A stretch of DNA of 64,000 bases from a bacterium (GTDB taxonomy: Bacteria; Bacteroidota; Ignavibacteria; UBA10030). Every line of letters starts with the position of its first letter. Positions within the stretch are counted from its first letter, which is position 1. The DNA is taken from the NCBI GenBank assembly GCA_043803945.1, contig JAZDJN010000091.1, forward strand, positions 13,671 to 77,670, read 5' to 3'. This document shows positions 4,992 to 14,404 of the stretch, in pieces. The notes beneath the pieces were generated by a model. It was not told where the DNA came from, made no database searches, and saw only the letters and a program-made list of their open reading frames with translations. Position numbers and translations under genes: made by a program.

Positions 4992-5030
4992 CGCTTTGAG
5001 TTCAACCATCACATGATTGAGTAATGAACC

Positions 5031-8000
5031 TTACCGAATGAGCATCAACTTACGTGTCAGGCGGAATTCACCCGCTGTGAGCGAATAGAAGTATGTTCCG
5101 CTTGGGAGCGATGCCGCATTAAATTGAATCTGATACTCACCTGCCTTGAGCATTCTCTCCACAAGTGTTGCTACGTTCTTTCCAAGGAGACTGAACACTT
5201 CCAGCGTTACTTTGGAATCCGTTGGAATAGAATACCTGATCGTCGTCGACGGATTGAATGGGTTGGGGAAGTTTTGTTCAAGCACAAATCCAGCCGGTAC
5301 CATCTTCTCATGGCCAATCTCACTTACAGAAATTGGTGTGATTGTCAGGAAAGCAGTTGCAGGCTGTGCCGCTCCATCGGACGATGAATGATACGCCGGG
5401 TTTGCTTTTACTGATCCCATAGAAAGATAGTTCACTTTATCGACAATCAGTGTATAGGATCCCGGCGTAAGGTCCTGAATTGTAAAGTTACCGCTCTGGT
5501 CCGTTATGCCGTACCCGGCAACATCTTCGGAATTCACCAACGCGTACACCATGACACCGGCAAGCGTACCTGCCTCACTGTTCCTGGCTGCTCCTCCACT
5601 TAGAGCAACAACACCTTGAATGGAGGTATATCCTGCCATTGCTTTTACAAGCGGCTTCACGATAATCGTGATCGCTGCAACTGAATTTCCATTGATCGGG
5701 ATTCTCGTTGCTTTCTCCCAGCTTGTGGTTGGACCCGAAATGCAATAGAATGTCGGTGTGTAATGCCCCAGCGGCAATGCGAAAATGATATAATTCCCCG
5801 GCGGCAGATTATTGAAATTATAGGCCCCGGTCGAATCGGTATCAGTCGTATAGGAGAGGGGAAGATTGGTGTATGTCTTCACAGCCGGATCAAGATAGGC
5901 CACTACTCTCGCCCTCAGCCCGGCTTTGGTTGCTGAATCCACAACTGTGCCGCTGATCTTGCCGGTTGAGACGGAGCTGATTTTCTTTAGCGTAAAGCTG
6001 ATCTTCGTGGTATCTTTCGTTAACTTTATGACATTGGCGGTGAGCAAATCCGATTTTCCATCGAAGAAGACATTCAAGTATCCGGGAGCCGTCGCCATTG
6101 CCGTATACGACCCTTGAGGCACCTTTACTGAGTATTTGCCGGTCGAATCCACACGAACTTTGTAAACATATTCCGAGGTCCCATCAATCCTTCCATCACC
6201 GTTAATCTGGATCGTGCTCACAAGCGGATCTGTTGGCTTTGGAATTTGTGAATTCATCGAATCGAAAAGATCACGGGTGCTGACTGTGCCCGATTCGCCA
6301 GGCATAAGTGAGACTCCGGCATTCAGACTGAATCCTGATGCGGTGAACACAACAGTAGCTTCCCGCATTGGTTTCTGGGTATCATCGAGAACGGATCCAC
6401 TTACCGTATACAATGGAAGAACCACTTTTGCCTTCATAATGAAGTTCACTGTCGATGTTGCATTGGGACGCACGAGAATGAGTGTGGCTTTATCCGAACT
6501 CGCAGCTCCATCGTACCACTGTTCGAGATAGTCGCCGCGACTTGAGGTCGCCCGCGCGACATAGGTACCCGAATCGACACGAGTGATTGTATACGTACCG
6601 TCTGAGCCGGTTACACCTTTGATCTCCAGTACCTGGAATGCATCCTTCTTATAGAGGCGCACATAGATTCCGGCAAGAGGTTTTCCAAGTGAATCCTTTA
6701 CCACTCCTGCGACAGTTCCGGTCGGACCTTGAACTGCGACAGAGAATGATTGATCTGCCCGCCCGCCTTTTGTCGAGGTCACTAACAGTGCAGCTTTGAA
6801 TATCCCTTTTTGATCCGGTACCCACTTGATCAGTCCGGTGGCAGATTCAATCGTCATGCCATTCGGTTTGGCACTTAATTGATACGTTAGTGTTGCCGTT
6901 GGATCGGTTGAGGTGGCAATCACTTGATAGGTATAAGGAATATTGAGCGTTGCACTCTCTGCAGCTTTCGATGTTATCCTGACGATATCGCCTTTGGCGG
7001 TCAATTTAAAATTGACTGTCGTCGTAGTGTTCGTCTTCACAGGGAAATATGTTGCCTGCTCAACACTCATCACACCATCGTACCATTGTTCGAGATAATT
7101 CGAATTATAGGGTATTGCACGAGCAACGTACGATCCGGTATCAACACGGATAATCGTATACTTGCCCAACGAATCAGTGATGCCCCTAATCTCAAAATAT
7201 TGTATCGTATTTTTTTGATACAAACGGATAGTCACTTTGGTTAATGGTTTTCCCTCAGAATCTGTAACGATACCGGTAACGCTACCTGTTGGACCGCTAA
7301 TGGTGACTCCAAACATCTGTTCAGCACGTCCTCCCCGTGATGAGGTAACGAGCAGTGAAGCTTTAAAGGTACCTTTCGACTGAGGAATCCAATTGATAAG
7401 TCCGGTAACTGCATCAATTGTCATGCCCTCTGGTTTCATGGTGAGCTGGTAACTCAATAAAACAGTTGGATCGGATGAGGTTGCTTTCACCTGGTAGGAG
7501 TAAAGTGTTCCAACGACTCCGCTTTCCAGAGGTTTTGAGGAAATGGCGATTACATCGTTTTTTACACTCAGTTTAAAATTCACGGTGACTGGCGCGTTTG
7601 GCTTCACTGTTATCGGAGTTGCTAACTCTGCATTGGTCACTCCATCGAACCATTGCTCATAAAGATCGCTGCGATTTGGAGTAGCACGGACAAGGTAGAG
7701 GCCCGAATCGACTTTACTGATGGTGTAATTACCAAGCGAATCGGTGATACCTTTAAATTGGATTGAGAGTAAACTATTTTTGGGATAGAGATAAACAGTA
7801 GCTCCTTTCACAGATTTTCCTGCAGGATCTGTTACGCTCCCTGCAACTGTCCCCGTCGGGCCATTGACAACCACCGTAAACGGTTGTTCAGCGCGGCCCC
7901 CTCGCGTAGAGGTGACAACCACTACTACTTTGAAGGTACCTTTCTGCAGTGGGATCCATTTCAATAATCCAGTGGCCGGATCAATTGTCATACCTTCAGG

Positions 8001-8495
8001 TTTCATCGATAATTGATAGCTCAACGTTACAGCGGGATCGGTTGTCGTCGCGACGACCTGATACGTGTATTGAACATTCAACGATGCCGACTCGGCCGGT
8101 TTCGAGGTGACACGAACCACATCGGTAACATTGATGTTTACCATGTTGCTATAACGCATTGAACCATTTTTCATCACTGCTACCACATAATAGACGAAGA
8201 TCGGTGGATTAACCGAGACTGGCGGGCGATCGACCGATTCAATCGTTGTCGTAGAGTCAGTCCGGATAAATGCGAGTATCCCCGATGTTTGACCACGATA
8301 CACCAGGAAGTATTTCACGGAATCTCCTGCTGGAGCGTTCCATTTGAGATACGTCGCTCCTCCTTCGTACTTCCCGCTTAAGGCAAAGTCAATCTTCGTG
8401 GATTGAGACCACAGTAACGTCGAGCAAAGAAGGATGCCGAGAATCAGCATTCCGAAAATAGAAAATATTTTTCGTTCCATATAGCGTACCCCCAT
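5031..8495 (-). CDS. Large T9SS-secreted surface protein with FN3-like N-terminus, 3 tandem (Ig-like + carboxypeptidase-regulatory-like) modules, further CarboxypepD_reg-like domains and a Por/T9SS C-terminal sorting domain
   Basis: 1154-aa ORF with a signal peptide (FSIFGMLILGILLCSTLLWSQ). It has three 189-aa internal repeats. The C-terminus, LEQNFPNPFNPSTTIRYSIP...GTYFYSLTAGEF..RKLMLIR, is a typical T9SS type-A CTD. Confidence 0.85.
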   Translation of the reverse strand: MGVRYMERKIFSIFGMLILGILLCSTLLWSQSTKIDFALSGKYEGGATYLKWNAPAGDSVKYFLVYRGQTSGILAFIRTDSTTTIESVDRPPVSVNPPIFVYYVVAVMKNGSMRYSNMVNINVTDVVRVTSKPAESASLNVQYTYQVVATTTDPAVTLSYQLSMKPEGMTIDPATGLLKWIPLQKGTFKVVVVVTSTRGGRAEQPFTVVVNGPTGTVAGSVTDPAGKSVKGATVYLYPKNSLLSIQFKGITDSLGNYTISKVDSGLYLVRATPNRSDLYEQWFDGVTNAELATPITVKPNAPVTVNFKLSVKNDVIAISSKPLESGVVGTLYSYQVKATSSDPTVLLSYQLTMKPEGMTIDAVTGLINWIPQSKGTFKASLLVTSSRGGRAEQMFGVTISGPTGSVTGIVTDSEGKPLTKVTIRLYQKNTIQYFEIRGITDSLGKYTIIRVDTGSYVARAIPYNSNYLEQWYDGVMSVEQATYFPVKTNTTTTVNFKLTAKGDIVRITSKAAESATLNIPYTYQVIATSTDPTATLTYQLSAKPNGMTIESATGLIKWVPDQKGIFKAALLVTSTKGGRADQSFSVAVQGPTGTVAGVVKDSLGKPLAGIYVRLYKKDAFQVLEIKGVTGSDGTYTITRVDSGTYVARATSSRGDYLEQWYDGAASSDKATLILVRPNATSTVNFIMKAKVVLPLYTVSGSVLDDTQKPMREATVVFTASGFSLNAGVSLMPGESGTVSTRDLFDSMNSQIPKPTDPLVSTIQINGDGRIDGTSEYVYKVRVDSTGKYSVKVPQGSYTAMATAPGYLNVFFDGKSDLLTANVIKLTKDTTKISFTLKKISSVSTGKISGTVVDSATKAGLRARVVAYLDPAVKTYTNLPLSYTTDTDSTGAYNFNNLPPGNYIIFALPLGHYTPTFYCISGPTTSWEKATRIPINGNSVAAITIIVKPLVKAMAGYTSIQGVVALSGGAARNSEAGTLAGVMVYALVNSEDVAGYGITDQSGNFTIQDLTPGSYTLIVDKVNYLSMGSVKANPAYHSSSDGAAQPATAFLTITPISVSEIGHEKMVPAGFVLEQNFPNPFNPSTTIRYSIPTDSKVTLEVFSLLGKNVATLVERMLKAGEYQIQFNAASLPSGTYFYSLTAGEFRLTRKLMLIR
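6420..8120 (-). repeat. Three tandem 567-bp (189-aa) in-frame coding repeats inside the T9SS protein gene
   Basis: Residues 126-314, 315-503 and 504-692 align colinearly (..TSKP.ES..L...Y.YQV.AT..DP...L.YQL..KP.GMTI....GL..W.P..KG.FK...VTS..GGRA.Q.F.V...GPTG.V.G.V.D..GK.....LY.K........GIT.S.G.YTI..VD.G.Y..RA......Y.EQW.DG.......V..N...TVNF). Confidence 0.85.
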
Positions 8496-11365: not shown

Positions 11366-11396
11366 TAAAAAAAACACCCGAGAAACTTTCGGGTGT
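11366..11396 (-). terminator. Rho-independent terminator after the thioredoxin-like/TPR gene
   Basis: On the minus strand, ACACCCGAAAGTTTCTCGGGTGT is followed by TTTTTTTT, 34 nt after the stop at 11430. Confidence 0.7.
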
Positions 11397-11429: not shown

Positions 11430-12752
11430 CTACTTTATTTCTGTAACTTTCATTATCGTCTCCAGACGAGTTTTGAACATTGCCTTCTGCGCTTCGGGAG
11501 CCAACTCGATAGCTTTTTCTCCGGCTTTCTTTGCTTCATCCAATTGCTTGTTTTTCACATAGATATTTGCAAGGGTCATATAGGCAGATGCAGAGGGATT
11601 CATTGTTACCACTTTCTTTGCGGCATCGAGAGCCCCCTCTAAATTCTTCCCTTGATTAGCCCAGAAATTGGCATAGGTAGAAAGAGCGTATTGATACATC
11701 GAAGTCTCGCGACTAATGAAATCCTTTCCATAAACCTCTTCAGCCTTTGCTTGATCGGCTTTAAGCATGTACAATTCTGCAAGCATACTCACATACTGTG
11801 AATTGCTGCCATTTTTAGGAAGGTCGACTGCTTTTTGTGCAAGCTCGATTCCCTTGTCGAGGTTCTCTTTGCTCCGAATAATTCTCCGTACAACGGCACT
11901 CAGAACCATCGGATCGTCGGGATACTTTGCCAGGTAGTCCTCAAAGAACTTTTTTGCTTCAACACTATGTTTTGCGGAGTCTTCTGGCGTTGCATTCCTG
12001 GGTGTGGACATATAATAGGAGGAGAGTCGCTGGTAACCTGATTTTGCCATCTCCGTCGAGCCATACTTCTTGAGAAATGCTTTCATCGGCTCAGCATTGA
12101 TTTTTGCACCTCTCAGTGTTTGGCCGGCGACCTGGAATTCTGCAAACTGGGTGTAGGATACTTTCTCCTTGCCGTACTCCGTCGTACCCAACTTTCCATT
12201 TGGATCGAGAGCAATCAACTCTGCGTACAACGCGGCAGCTTTGTCTTGATTGTACCGGCTGTCGTATTTTTTGGCAAGGTTAAAGATGACGGGAATATTT
12301 TTTGGATCTTTTTTGTACTGATCGGAATAGGACTTGAAGGTTTCTTTGCCTTTTACGGCATTGTCTACTTGCTCGTGGTATTTCTCAACTGCACCGCCGA
12401 ATCCGACAATCCAATCGACTTCAGCTCCATCATTGGCAAGAAACATTACTGTGGGAGTGGCACGGATGCTATACTTTGTAAAGATTGCTTTACCATCATC
12501 CTTGCTGTTATCAGCACGGAACATGATAAAGTTTGCATTGAAATAATCAGCGTACTTTTTATTCTCATAATATTGCTCACCGAGCAATTTGCAGAATCCT
12601 CACGTAGGAGAATAAAAATCTATTAATACCAACTTCTTCTCACTCTTTGCCTTCGCAAGCGCTTCGTCCAGGTTACCTGTAAACCAGACCTGGGAAAAAG
12701 CTGTGCCGACGAAAATGAGCAAGAGTAGTCCCAAAATAATTGCCCTTTTCAT
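11430..12752 (-). CDS. Exported thioredoxin-fold + TPR-repeat protein; full length requires decoding of an in-frame TGA (12602-12600) as selenocysteine (candidate UxxC selenoprotein)
   Basis: The track ORF 11430..12587 starts at a TTG 15 nt after an in-frame TGA. The same frame stays open for 50 more codons up to the ATG at 12752. Those codons encode signal peptide MKRAIILGLLLLIFVGTAFSQ plus ...KKLVLIDFYSPT[TGA]GFCKLLGEQ. That matches the DF.A.WC..CK thioredoxin redox-motif context. The C-terminal half has TPR-like repeats. Confidence 0.6.
12561..12599 (-). promoter_or_regulatory. SECIS-like recoding hairpin immediately 3' of the in-frame UGA
   Basis: mRNA: UGA GG AUUCU GCAA AUUGCU CGGUG AGCAAU AUUAUG AGAAU. 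The lower 5-bp stem and upper 6-bp stem were checked base by base. The upper stem begins 11 nt after the UGA, and the apical loop contains GGU. Confidence 0.5.
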
Positions 12753-13054: not shown

Positions 13055-14404
13055 TCAGTTGCCTTGTTTCTTTTTCTCCCGGTTGGCATGCCTGCCTGTG
13101 CCGTCTCCTTCGTCCAGAATTCCACCGGTGGGATTCAATTGATCGAGTGCCGCCTGCAACCGCTTGCGCACGGCGATTGCCGCGGGGGCTTTCGTATCGG
13201 CTGCTAAGAGTTTCTCTTCGAACGGAGCGTTACTCATGTCGAACAGTTCGCCCGCTTGATTCAATTTCCATCCGGCATCCCGGACATACCACTGCCGGGC
13301 GAGTTGAATGAAGATCAATTCGCGCGACTGCCCTTTATTACCATAAACTTGCGCGGCGAAACTGCGTCCGTCAATGGTGGTGTTTTGGGGAAGTTTCGCT
13401 CCTGCCAGATCAGCAAACGTCGGGAGGAAATCGCTGGAATCGATCATCTCATGGGAAACTTTACCAGCGGGTGTCGTACCGGGCCAGTTGACGATCAGCG
13501 GCTCACGGCTGCCTCCTTCGAGCATCGAACCCTTTTGACCGGAGAGGCGTCGACCGCCGATTGTCGCCCGGTCTGCATGTCCACCTGCAGTGCCGTTGTC
13601 GCTGAAGAAAACGATCAGGGTTTTCTCGCGAAGCTTCAGGCGATCGAGTTCAGCAATCAACTTACCGACAAGCATGTCCATGTAGGTAACGTTGTCCGCG
13701 TAAAAGTCTTTGCTGTTCGGCGCGCTATCGGGTGTGGGCAGGATTTCTGCATGCACATGCGACATTGAGTAATAGAGATAGAACGGTTTTTCTTGGTGCA
13801 TTGTGATGAAGTCAATAACATGCTGATGCATCACATCGGGCATGTATTCTTTATCGTGAAGGACTTTTTCCTCGCCGTTGACGAGATAGGTTCGGCCTTT
13901 GGCCTGCGTGTTCCAGTAGATACCGCTTCCGGTAAACTTCAGGTAGTAGTCGAAACCAAAGTCGTCCGGATTCAGTGGAAGCTGGCCCCATTTACCGATC
14001 GCAGCAGTGACGTAGCCCGCCGGCTTCAGGACATTGGGAATCATGGTTTCGACTGAGGGTTTCATGAGCCCAGTGCTATCCTGGTTCGTGGCACCGGTGC
14101 GAAACAAGTAGCGCCCCGTCAGGATGGTTGCACGGGATGGTCCGCACAACGATGGCGTATAAGCATGGGTGAAGCGAACACCACCGCGTGCAAGCTGGTC
14201 AATGTTTGGCGTCTTGTAATTGTCCGCACCGTAGCAACTCACCTCGCCGATACCGTAGTCATCTGCAAGAATGAAGATGATGTTGGGCTTCTTGTCTTGG
14301 AGCAGCATGCCAGGAAGGAGATCATTGCCAAACACATAGTCATGCGCTGCTGCGCTCCCGGCAGCAATTACGCCGGCAGCTTTGATAAAGTTACGTCGTT
14401 GCAT
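13055..14404 (-). CDS. Arylsulfatase (sulfatase family, formylglycine-dependent), TAT-type signal
   Basis: 449-aa ORF. Twin-arginine signal MQRRNFIKAAGVIAAGSAAA, sulfatase signature SLCGPSRATILTGRY (C-x-P-x-R), and IIFILADDYG. Confidence 0.9.
   Translation of the reverse strand: MQRRNFIKAAGVIAAGSAAAHDYVFGNDLLPGMLLQDKKPNIIFILADDYGIGEVSCYGADNYKTPNIDQLARGGVRFTHAYTPSLCGPSRATILTGRYLFRTGATNQDSTGLMKPSVETMIPNVLKPAGYVTAAIGKWGQLPLNPDDFGFDYYLKFTGSGIYWNTQAKGRTYLVNGEEKVLHDKEYMPDVMHQHVIDFITMHQEKPFYLYYSMSHVHAEILPTPDSAPNSKDFYADNVTYMDMLVGKLIAELDRLKLREKTLIVFFSDNGTAGGHADRATIGGRRLSGQKGSMLEGGSREPLIVNWPGTTPAGKVSHEMIDSSDFLPTFADLAGAKLPQNTTIDGRSFAAQVYGNKGQSRELIFIQLARQWYVRDAGWKLNQAGELFDMSNAPFEEKLLAADTKAPAAIAVRKRLQAALDQLNPTGGILDEGDGTGRHANREKKKQGN

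Follow-up and report, generated by a model that had tools for sequence, protein, structure and literature searches.

Reading frame and features of the locus

The stretch analysed here, 64,000 nucleotides of contig JAZDJN010000091.1 (hereafter the window), carries on its minus strand a reading frame that starts with an ATG at 12752, runs for 50 codons to a TGA at 12602-12600, continues for 389 codons and closes with a TAG at 11432-11430. This TGA is the only one in the 440-codon frame 12752..11430. Listed mechanically, the same DNA appears as two open reading frames (ORFs), 12600..12752 (50 aa) and 11430..12587 (385 aa). An earlier note, made from the sequence, had proposed that the TGA encodes selenocysteine (Sec, U) in an exported thioredoxin-like protein with tetratricopeptide repeats (TPR). 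Its description of the locus holds: the recomputed coordinates place the start of ORF 11430..12587 at a TTG, the fifth codon past the TGA; translation bears out the 50 open codons from ATG 12752; and the peptide that it quoted around the site, ...LVLIDFYSPT-[TGA]-GFCKLLGEQYY, is recovered exactly. The features of the gene, as we read them, are listed below (SECIS, selenocysteine insertion sequence; MFE, minimum free energy).

11430..12752, minus strand: predicted full selenoprotein gene, 440 sense codons including the UGA, then TAG 11432-11430 (from translation, Pfam, homologues and a structural model)
12690..12752, minus strand: predicted signal peptide MKRAIILGLLLLIFVGTAFSQ, of the general secretory (Sec) type, without a lipobox Cys (read from the translation)
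12600..12602, minus strand: in-frame TGA, read here as Sec, residue 51, first position of U-x-x-C
12591..12593, minus strand: TGC, resolving Cys54 of U-G-F-C; TGC/TGT invariant in 148/148 distinct sequences
12585..12587, minus strand: TTG, false start of ORF callers; really Leu56, in the SECIS stem
12572..12588, minus strand: conserved SECIS core, 7-bp stem AUUGCUC (12588-12582)/GAGCAAU (12578-12572) with triloop GGU (12581-12579)
12561..12597, minus strand: window-specific lower stem AUUCU (12597-12593)/AGAAU (12565-12561), in the window MFE structure only
12453..12461, minus strand: T-P-T, residues 98-100, ACT CCC ACA; invariant columns in alignment A1
11367..11396, minus strand: intrinsic-terminator-like hairpin ACACCCGA/TCGGGTGT followed by a T-run, ~35 nt past the stop (read directly)

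Cleavage of the signal peptide would probably fall around AFS/Q in the window protein (the slash marks the cut); the family consensus, ...ASAQ/NWF, has a classical AxA site. The T-P-T triplet, printed in A1 as T99 P100 T101 of the first sequence and numbered 98-100 here by counting along the window translation, is presumably the cis-proline loop of the thioredoxin (Trx) fold, packing against the active site. The gene appears to be monocistronic, with the terminator-like hairpin at 11396-11367 beyond its stop codon; a consensus terminator scan did not list this hairpin. TGA terminates 15 of the 37 longest ORFs in the window, so the standard genetic code is in use there and an alternative code is ruled out. 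A scan of the window for other genes with an in-frame TGA yielded no convincing candidate.

The TGA is shared by every sampled copy of a widespread family

The gene is one of a widespread family, present in genomes of Aminicenantes and Ignavibacteria, whose public gene calls are nearly always cut short at the TGA. A protein search found 131 relatives; nearly all of them, as called, begin at "[M/L]LGQQ...", just past the TGA, or further downstream. At the DNA level the family was followed in 160 loci, two of them fetched (L001 and L002) and 158 further ones taken from two collection scans, most of the 158 being metagenome-assembled genomes (MAGs) of Aminicenantes. Copies share 34-60% identity across the 160 loci, and the clade closest to the window consists of Ignavibacteria, Ignavibacteriales and Ignavibacteriota MAGs (48-57% identity).

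In these loci the aligned codon is TGA in 189 of 189 copies and TGC or TGT in none. The total comprises 178 copies placed automatically, a count that an independent motif scan reproduced, and 11 that were resolved by hand. The presence of the same TGA in every copy marks it as a feature of the family rather than a lesion. Upstream of it, the signal peptide and "WFKGTLDEALAKAK..LVLIDF" are kept in frame across the family, and over the 28 upstream codons the column entropy at the first, second and third codon position is 0.75, 0.46 and 1.20 bits, respectively, a pattern that identifies these codons as coding. The N-terminal 50 residues, for which the earlier note had wanted a comparison with homologues, are thus preserved in the relatives with a contiguous signal peptide.

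Four protein entries read through the site and show Trp there (P0005, P0011, P0071 and P0119). The underlying DNA of P0071 and P0005 has TGA at the Trp position (L001 283-285 and L002 280-282), so a Trp variant, or a code in which TGA means Trp, is ruled out for both of the DNAs checked. The Trp arises because these genes were called with genetic code 4 on short contigs in which the family gene dominates. Two further entries, P0170 and P0186, are probably read-through entries of the same kind. A representative search also returned a 153-aa entry, P0210, with Ser at the Sec position (...FFSAG-S-GGCKLLGEQ...); this could be a real variant, a TCA/TGA sequencing difference or a translation artefact.

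Tandem arrays of the gene are common: one locus has four copies (L033, with TGA at 8430, 10148, 11976 and 13766), another has three (L018, at 7416, 9026 and 10692), and 22 further loci have two paralogues. Each tandem paralogue has its own TGA and SECIS hairpin, and some copies carry U-P-[G/S]-C, not U-G-x-C.

Cysteine stands at the TGA position in more distant relatives

A profile search of 1.84 billion representatives again returned mostly shortened calls. Among the matches, P0121 (509 aa, 526 bits), which has the same architecture, reads ...HAFG-C-QG-C-DLL... at the TGA site. A broader group of exported Trx-TPR proteins of ~350 aa carries WCGPC, WCVPC, NCGAC and similar motifs, and in the solved structure nearest to the Trx domain, 2KUC ("putative disulphide-isomerase"), the first Cys of WCGPC aligns with the TGA. 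The UGA and the conserved Cys of these relatives therefore form a Sec/Cys pair. That the TGA lies where the first redox Cys of a Trx motif is expected, as proposed earlier, is borne out by P0121, the distant CxxC relatives and 2KUC alike.

A compact hairpin downstream of the UGA covaries across the family

Folding of the window sequence confirms that the upper stem begins 11 nt past the UGA, as the earlier note had stated. The loop G is the 19th nucleotide past the UGA, which gives a UGA-loop spacing of 18 nt. The note had described a 6-bp upper stem with a CGGUG loop on top of an AUUCU/AGAAU lower stem; the upper stem stands, although with 7 bp and a GGU triloop, whereas the lower stem is not conserved and is missing from the family RNAalifold consensus. 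Across the family, the conserved element is a stem of 7-8 bp closing a G-N-U triloop. The loop has 3 nt, GGU in the window and G-N-Y across the family, and its first G is invariant.

The hairpin alignment (A2) comprises 148 distinct 60-nt segments from the TGA onward and is gapless. Columns 15-21 pair with columns 25-31 in all 148 sequences, and the pairs that vary do so without a single broken combination: pair 16-30 is C-G in 121 sequences and U-A in 27, pair 21-25 is G-C in 118 and C-G in 30, and pair 15-31 is A-U in 139, G-U in six and C-G in three. Most of the changes lie at synonymous sites: Leu UUG is found together with Gln CAA, and Leu CUG with Gln CAG; at pair 21-25, CUG (Leu) is matched by CAG (Gln) and CUC (Leu) by GAG (Glu). 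Computed without regard to phylogeny, the covariation score is 0.222; shuffles give 0.095 +/- 0.007, with 0 of 500 as high, and controls with slid 3' partners give 0.02-0.07. Each of the four stem haplotypes is present, combined with several loop types, and RNAalifold, likewise uncorrected for phylogeny, recovers the same helix unprompted when run on the family.

Codon choice in the loop and stem is equally skewed. Where the loop codon encodes Gly it is GGU in 81 of 83 sequences, compared to only 9% GGT among the Gly codons elsewhere in the same genes; where it encodes Val it is GUU in 36 of 48 (75%), compared to 15% in the rest of these genes. Although CUC leads the Leu codons (42%), it never appears at codon 6.

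By published criteria, a bacterial SECIS (bSECIS) element has 3-9 nt in its loop and 4-16 bp in its upper stem, with a G within the first two positions of the loop, a UGA-loop distance of 16-37 nt and an MFE <= -7.5 kcal/mol (PMC13188914). The family hairpin falls within these limits, with a median core MFE of -9.7 kcal/mol and 137 of 148 sequences at or below -7.5. Like the E. coli fdhF/fdnG SECIS (bSECIS model, PMC13188914 Fig. 2A), it is a coding-region hairpin directly 3' of the UGA, and it shares with that model a first loop G followed by G/U, a spacing within 16-37 nt and an energy <= -7.5 kcal/mol. It differs in being much smaller (7-8 bp, 3-nt loop) and in having no conserved bulged U. 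The fdhF-type geometry claimed earlier thus holds at the level of the bSECIS criteria but not in detail, and the compensatory changes at synonymous sites add family-wide evidence for the element.

A thioredoxin fold spanning the TGA is joined to a TPR solenoid

With the TGA taken as Cys for the search, Pfam Trx domains cover residues 24-118 and therefore cross the TGA (Thioredoxin_2 PF13098, 47.5 bits, cutoff 27; Thioredoxin_7 PF13899, 43.5; Thioredoxin PF00085, 40.3). TPR matches follow at residues 369-425, with TPR_2 at 36 bits and TPR_19 at 34.6 bits, both above their cutoffs. Most family members have the active-site motif U-G-[S/G/A]-C, and some have U-P-[G/S]-C.

An AlphaFold (AF2) model was made for a full-length homologue, P0071, standing in for the window protein. 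Its mean confidence is high (pLDDT, the predicted local distance difference test, 92.1; pTM, the predicted template modelling score, 0.80), and in it a disordered signal peptide is followed by a Trx fold (residues 27-130) and an all-helical solenoid (136-501). Within the Trx fold, a strand (40-44) precedes a helix (51-61) that is capped by the Sec site, residue 50, as in a classical CxxC protein. A Foldseek search of the model against the PDB gave nothing but generic TPR superhelices; OGT and SPY were among the top matches, and the periplasmic adaptor LbcA ranked ninth. A solved structure with the same two-domain Trx and TPR architecture was not found, and CnoX did not appear.

The family is linked to the selenocysteine machinery

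ARAGORN, run on ~2 Mb (the window plus the loci), called nine tRNAs, four of them tRNA-Sec (UCA). Rfam RF01852 confirmed the tRNA-Sec in L009, L011 and L111 at 72-73 bits (gathering score 47). Locus L111 holds a complete selA-selD-selB-tRNA-Sec set with the family gene inside it: the order is selA (568 bits, cutoff 268), selD (368, cutoff 125), the family gene, a 180-aa DsbDalpha-like ORF, selB (368, cutoff 242) and tRNA-Sec, the sel genes being identified by NCBIfam equivalog models. In L011 the order is selD, the family gene, a MarR gene, selB (362) and tRNA-Sec, with a 76%-identical tblastn match to SelA ~5 kb upstream. Probing with the L111 proteins located sel genes beside the family gene in ~20 of the 160 loci. 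In two loci of the Ignavibacteria-like clade nearest the window, L089 and L091, selA (589 bits) lies 1.4 kb downstream of the family gene. The Sec machinery that the earlier note wanted sought in the rest of the genome is thus present in relatives, where the family adjoins or sits inside selA-selD-selB-tRNA-Sec clusters.

Two kinds of candidate redox partner recur beside the gene. An ORF resembling the DsbD alpha domain (DsbD_N, PF11412, 34.6 bits) directly follows it in 15 loci:

4535-5077 of L111: DsbD_N-like ORF
11634-12002 of L047 (Ignavibacteriota): DsbD_N-like ORF
also in L141, L096, L137, L024, L100, L132, L109/L110, L125, L008, L017, L102 and L097: DsbD_N-like ORF

Its position beside the selenoprotein gene suggests a two-protein periplasmic thiol relay. 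A membrane 4Fe-4S ferredoxin of the NapH/MauN type is found near the gene in five loci (L089, L091, L008, L017 and L134) and could be an electron donor across the membrane.

In L089 the NapH/MauN-like protein (5028-5924) is encoded between selA and the family gene, and the gene ends overlap in the manner of an operon. The 177-aa ORF of L089 and the 180-aa ORF of L111 were considered as one conserved partner and are unrelated; only the L111 type, which is DsbD_N-like, recurs. In one Aminicenantes-like clade (L011, at 12092-12505, L141, L096 and L137), a MarR-family regulator lies between the family gene, together with the DsbDalpha-like ORF, and selB-tRNA-Sec; it may control the sel cluster.

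Weighing the selenoprotein reading

We conclude that the in-frame TGA almost certainly encodes selenocysteine and, with high confidence, that minus-strand 12752..11430 forms one gene, whose product is an exported selenoprotein. What carries this conclusion is observed directly: the continuity of the gene, the family-wide TGA, the Sec/Cys pair, the covarying hairpin, the linkage to sel genes and the fold. The product is very probably a 440-residue exported thioredoxin-plus-TPR redox selenoprotein. The earlier note had reached this same reading, which the Pfam Trx and TPR matches, the homologues, the SECIS and the sel linkage now support. Sec insertion in this organism, export, the substrate and the direction of electron flow are, for their part, predictions from sequence.

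Several observations weigh against this reading. The 64-kb window, when searched, contained no selA, selB or selD and no tRNA-Sec; the tRNA and Rfam scans and the sel-gene search agree on this, as the earlier note had said, and we therefore infer Sec decoding in this organism from its relatives. The window neighbours include neither a DsbDalpha-like nor a NapH-like gene, so the relay hypothesis draws on other genomes. The U-G-F-C motif of the window protein is unique among the 148 distinct sequences. Its hairpin core, at -7.1 kcal/mol, is weaker than the family median of -9.7, although with its own lower stem the hairpin reaches -9.6 (47 nt) or -11.7 (66 nt). Even -11.7 kcal/mol has to be set against -9.7 +/- 2.5 in shuffled sequences (z = -0.79), 35 out of 200 of which fold equally well; by itself the window hairpin is thus no better than chance, and the case for it is made by the family alignment. 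The statistics for covariation in that alignment ignore phylogeny. Finally, the signal peptide and export were judged by eye, and the case for selenium incorporation at the UGA is one of sequence comparison.

Four other explanations have to be set against these data; several lines of evidence contradict each of them and, taken together, we consider them improbable. Some of the points above would fit a relic, that is, a true selenoprotein family of which the copy here has outlived its Sec machinery, so that the UGA terminates and at most a shortened product is made from TTG 12587. The lack of sel genes and tRNA-Sec in the window, the weak hairpin core and the atypical Phe at the second x of the motif all favour it. 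The gene has no other lesion, however: the frame, signal peptide, resolving Cys, T-P-T and all seven stem pairs are intact, and a decaying gene would lose its pairing at synonymous sites. Moreover, 64 kb is a small fraction of a genome, in which the absence of sel genes is expected by chance, and the nearest clade has selA beside the gene. We regard a relic as decidedly unlikely. Harder still to credit is read-through of the UGA without selenium, by a near-cognate tRNA-Trp, tRNA-Cys or tRNA-Arg, with the hairpin as a general stimulator. UGA is the leakiest bacterial stop codon and downstream structures can stimulate read-through, but the UGA falls at the catalytic nucleophile of a CxxC-type motif, a position that only Cys or Sec can serve and at which relatives carry Cys. 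The hairpin also has SelB-type features, with a small loop that opens with G, selection for U at the third loop position and an 18-nt spacing, and the family is physically linked to selA, selB, selC and selD.

Every gene caller using genetic code 11 treats the TGA as a true stop; the products would then be a secreted peptide of 50 residues and, separately, a cytoplasmic TPR protein of 385 residues initiated at TTG 12587. Such a stop would split the Trx fold and remove the redox nucleophile, the very loss that the earlier note had foreseen in the absence of recoding; the Cys homologues, by comparison, are single polypeptides. The supposed start region also argues against it, since its two Leu codons make up the SECIS stem, and which Leu codons are used covaries with the Gln/Glu codons 3' of the loop. 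The chance that the TGA is a true stop seems to us very slight. An error of sequencing or assembly, or a pseudogene restricted to this contig, is the last alternative; such errors most often reveal themselves by one in-frame stop, but the same codon occupies the same position in all 189 independent copies, which come from many samples, assemblers and phyla; we consider this explanation negligible.

A proposed mechanism and function

If the UGA is decoded as Sec, a ribosome would reach it at codon 51 while the mRNA 11 nt downstream folds into the hairpin of 7-8 bp with its G-N-U triloop, which would act as a minimal bacterial SECIS. SelB carrying Sec-tRNA(Sec) would bind this hairpin and insert selenocysteine, and translation would run on to the TAG at 11430-11432. 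The protein would then be secreted through the general secretory (Sec) pathway with cleavage of its signal peptide. In its mature form it is expected to consist of a Trx fold with U-G-x-C and a cis-Pro loop (T-P-T), fused to a TPR-like solenoid of ~300 residues.

The most likely function is that of a periplasmic selenol/thiol-disulfide oxidoreductase, a reductase or isomerase, in a reducing relay resembling that of DsbD gamma. In this scheme a partner or unfolded protein would stay bound to the TPR solenoid as its disulfides are reduced or isomerised by the Sec-Cys pair, and in some lineages electrons could be exchanged with the DsbDalpha-like protein and possibly with the NapH-like membrane ferredoxin.

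We give low credence to a bolder idea, in which the family is a dedicated selenium-handling component: the exported Sec Trx-TPR protein would capture or reduce extracellular or periplasmic selenium species, with the DsbDalpha-like protein and the NapH-like membrane ferredoxin as partners, and thereby feed SelD. Such a role would explain both the position of the gene between selD and selB-selC in one clade and the invariable Sec. According to a 2026 review, prokaryotes have no known specific high-affinity system for taking up selenium, and the selenium donor to SelD is not established.

Relation to known proteins and to current annotation

Trx-fold UxxC selenoproteins are of a classical kind, and the window family is a new member of that group. 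What makes it stand out is the presence of Sec in every sampled copy, the compact covarying SECIS, the tandem expansion and, in one clade, insertion into the sel operon. The closest comparison set is formed by the bacterial 'thiol:disulfide interchange protein' (PF13098, motif UxxC), Trx-like, DsbA-like and DsbG-like Sec families (PMC13188914 Table 1). With these families it shares a Thioredoxin_2-type fold, Sec in place of the first Cys of CxxC, a SECIS directly 3' of the UGA, the existence of Cys homologues and a probably periplasmic location. Unlike them, it has a C-terminal TPR-like solenoid of ~300 residues and its own G-N-U-triloop SECIS, as well as TGA in every sampled copy, frequent tandem copies and, in one clade, a place inside the sel operon; the separation from the PF13098 representative WP_011366075.1 was made by description, not by sequence.

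The window protein reached no model cutoff in NCBIfam release 20. Its best selenoprotein match there was TsoB (seleno_TsoB NF045694), at 43 bits against a cutoff of 805 and confined to the Trx region (TsoB 455-550, the C-terminus), and the models NF041046 (UGSC), NF040730 (SaoT) and NF047660 (HUIPC Trx-like) gave no match even at E <= 0.01. A Trx-TPR family is missing from a 2026 list of 119 prokaryotic selenoprotein families, and TPR, Aminicenantes and Ignavibacteria go unmentioned there, as they do in BSepDB and deep-Sep. A literature search for selenoproteins of Aminicenantes or Ignavibacteria, or for Trx-TPR selenoproteins, returned nothing relevant.

The Trx domain matches best the gamma region of DsbD, the periplasmic reducing relay of E. 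coli (PRK00293 456-562). Both would be exported modules of thiol-disulfide relays, and the DsbD_N-like ORF next to the family gene in other genomes adds to the likeness. Membership in DsbD itself fails, because the alpha-beta-gamma architecture is absent and only the gamma-domain region aligns: the window protein has no fused beta (membrane) domain, scores 37.9 bits against the PRK00293 cutoff of 330, has Sec for Cys and a TPR domain, and has no DsbDalpha-like neighbour.

In the CnoX/YbbN chaperedoxin, too, an N-terminal Trx fold is followed by TPR repeats, a likeness of architecture only. The shared domain order suggests, by analogy, that redox chemistry may be coupled to client binding. CnoX is cytoplasmic and has no signal peptide; its E. 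coli form lacks CxxC, and its TPR domain is much shorter than that of the window family. No significant sequence or fold match of the family to CnoX/YbbN was obtained, and the Joint Genome Institute (JGI) annotates one homologue as 'thioredoxin-like negative regulator of GroEL'.

In public databases the family goes under the name "tetratricopeptide repeat protein". Hundreds of its entries are shortened proteins of that name, without signal peptide or catalytic residue, and others are code-4 artefacts with Trp at the active site. A corrected annotation would move the predicted location from cytoplasmic to exported and the predicted function from scaffold to redox enzyme. The family would then count as a widespread, apparently obligately Sec-dependent addition to the bacterial selenoproteome; for selenoprotein specialists, it is a solid and useful addition and not a surprise. 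Its compact SECIS (7-bp stem, G-N-U triloop), backed by covariation, could improve SECIS models. Because the gene repeatedly lies within or next to the sel operon, accompanied by a DsbDalpha-like ORF, a connection between selenium metabolism and periplasmic redox chemistry can be put to the test.

Neighbouring genes and source genomes

Around the gene, the window encodes a sulfatase, an M28-type peptidase and a protein with a tail of the type IX secretion system (T9SS), none of which recurs with the family. Two of these are placed as follows.

5031-8495, minus strand: 1154-aa protein with a T9SS type A sorting domain (TIGR04183, 36 bits)
13055-14404, minus strand: sulfatase, just upstream of the selenoprotein gene

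The T9SS sorting domain points to a host of the FCB group resembling Ignavibacteria, in agreement with the source of the selenoprotein's closest homologues. Adjacency to a sulfatase was rejected as a family trait, as it is seen only in the window and in L138 (2 of 160 loci). The window also contains two tRNAs, for Phe and Val, and no other Rfam match.

Many of the family-bearing third party annotation (TPA) MAGs are labelled 'uncultured Eubacteriales bacterium' (L005, L006, L008-L011, L017, L026, L031, L034, L035 and others). Their copies cluster with those from Aminicenantes-labelled genomes, and the label looks unreliable.

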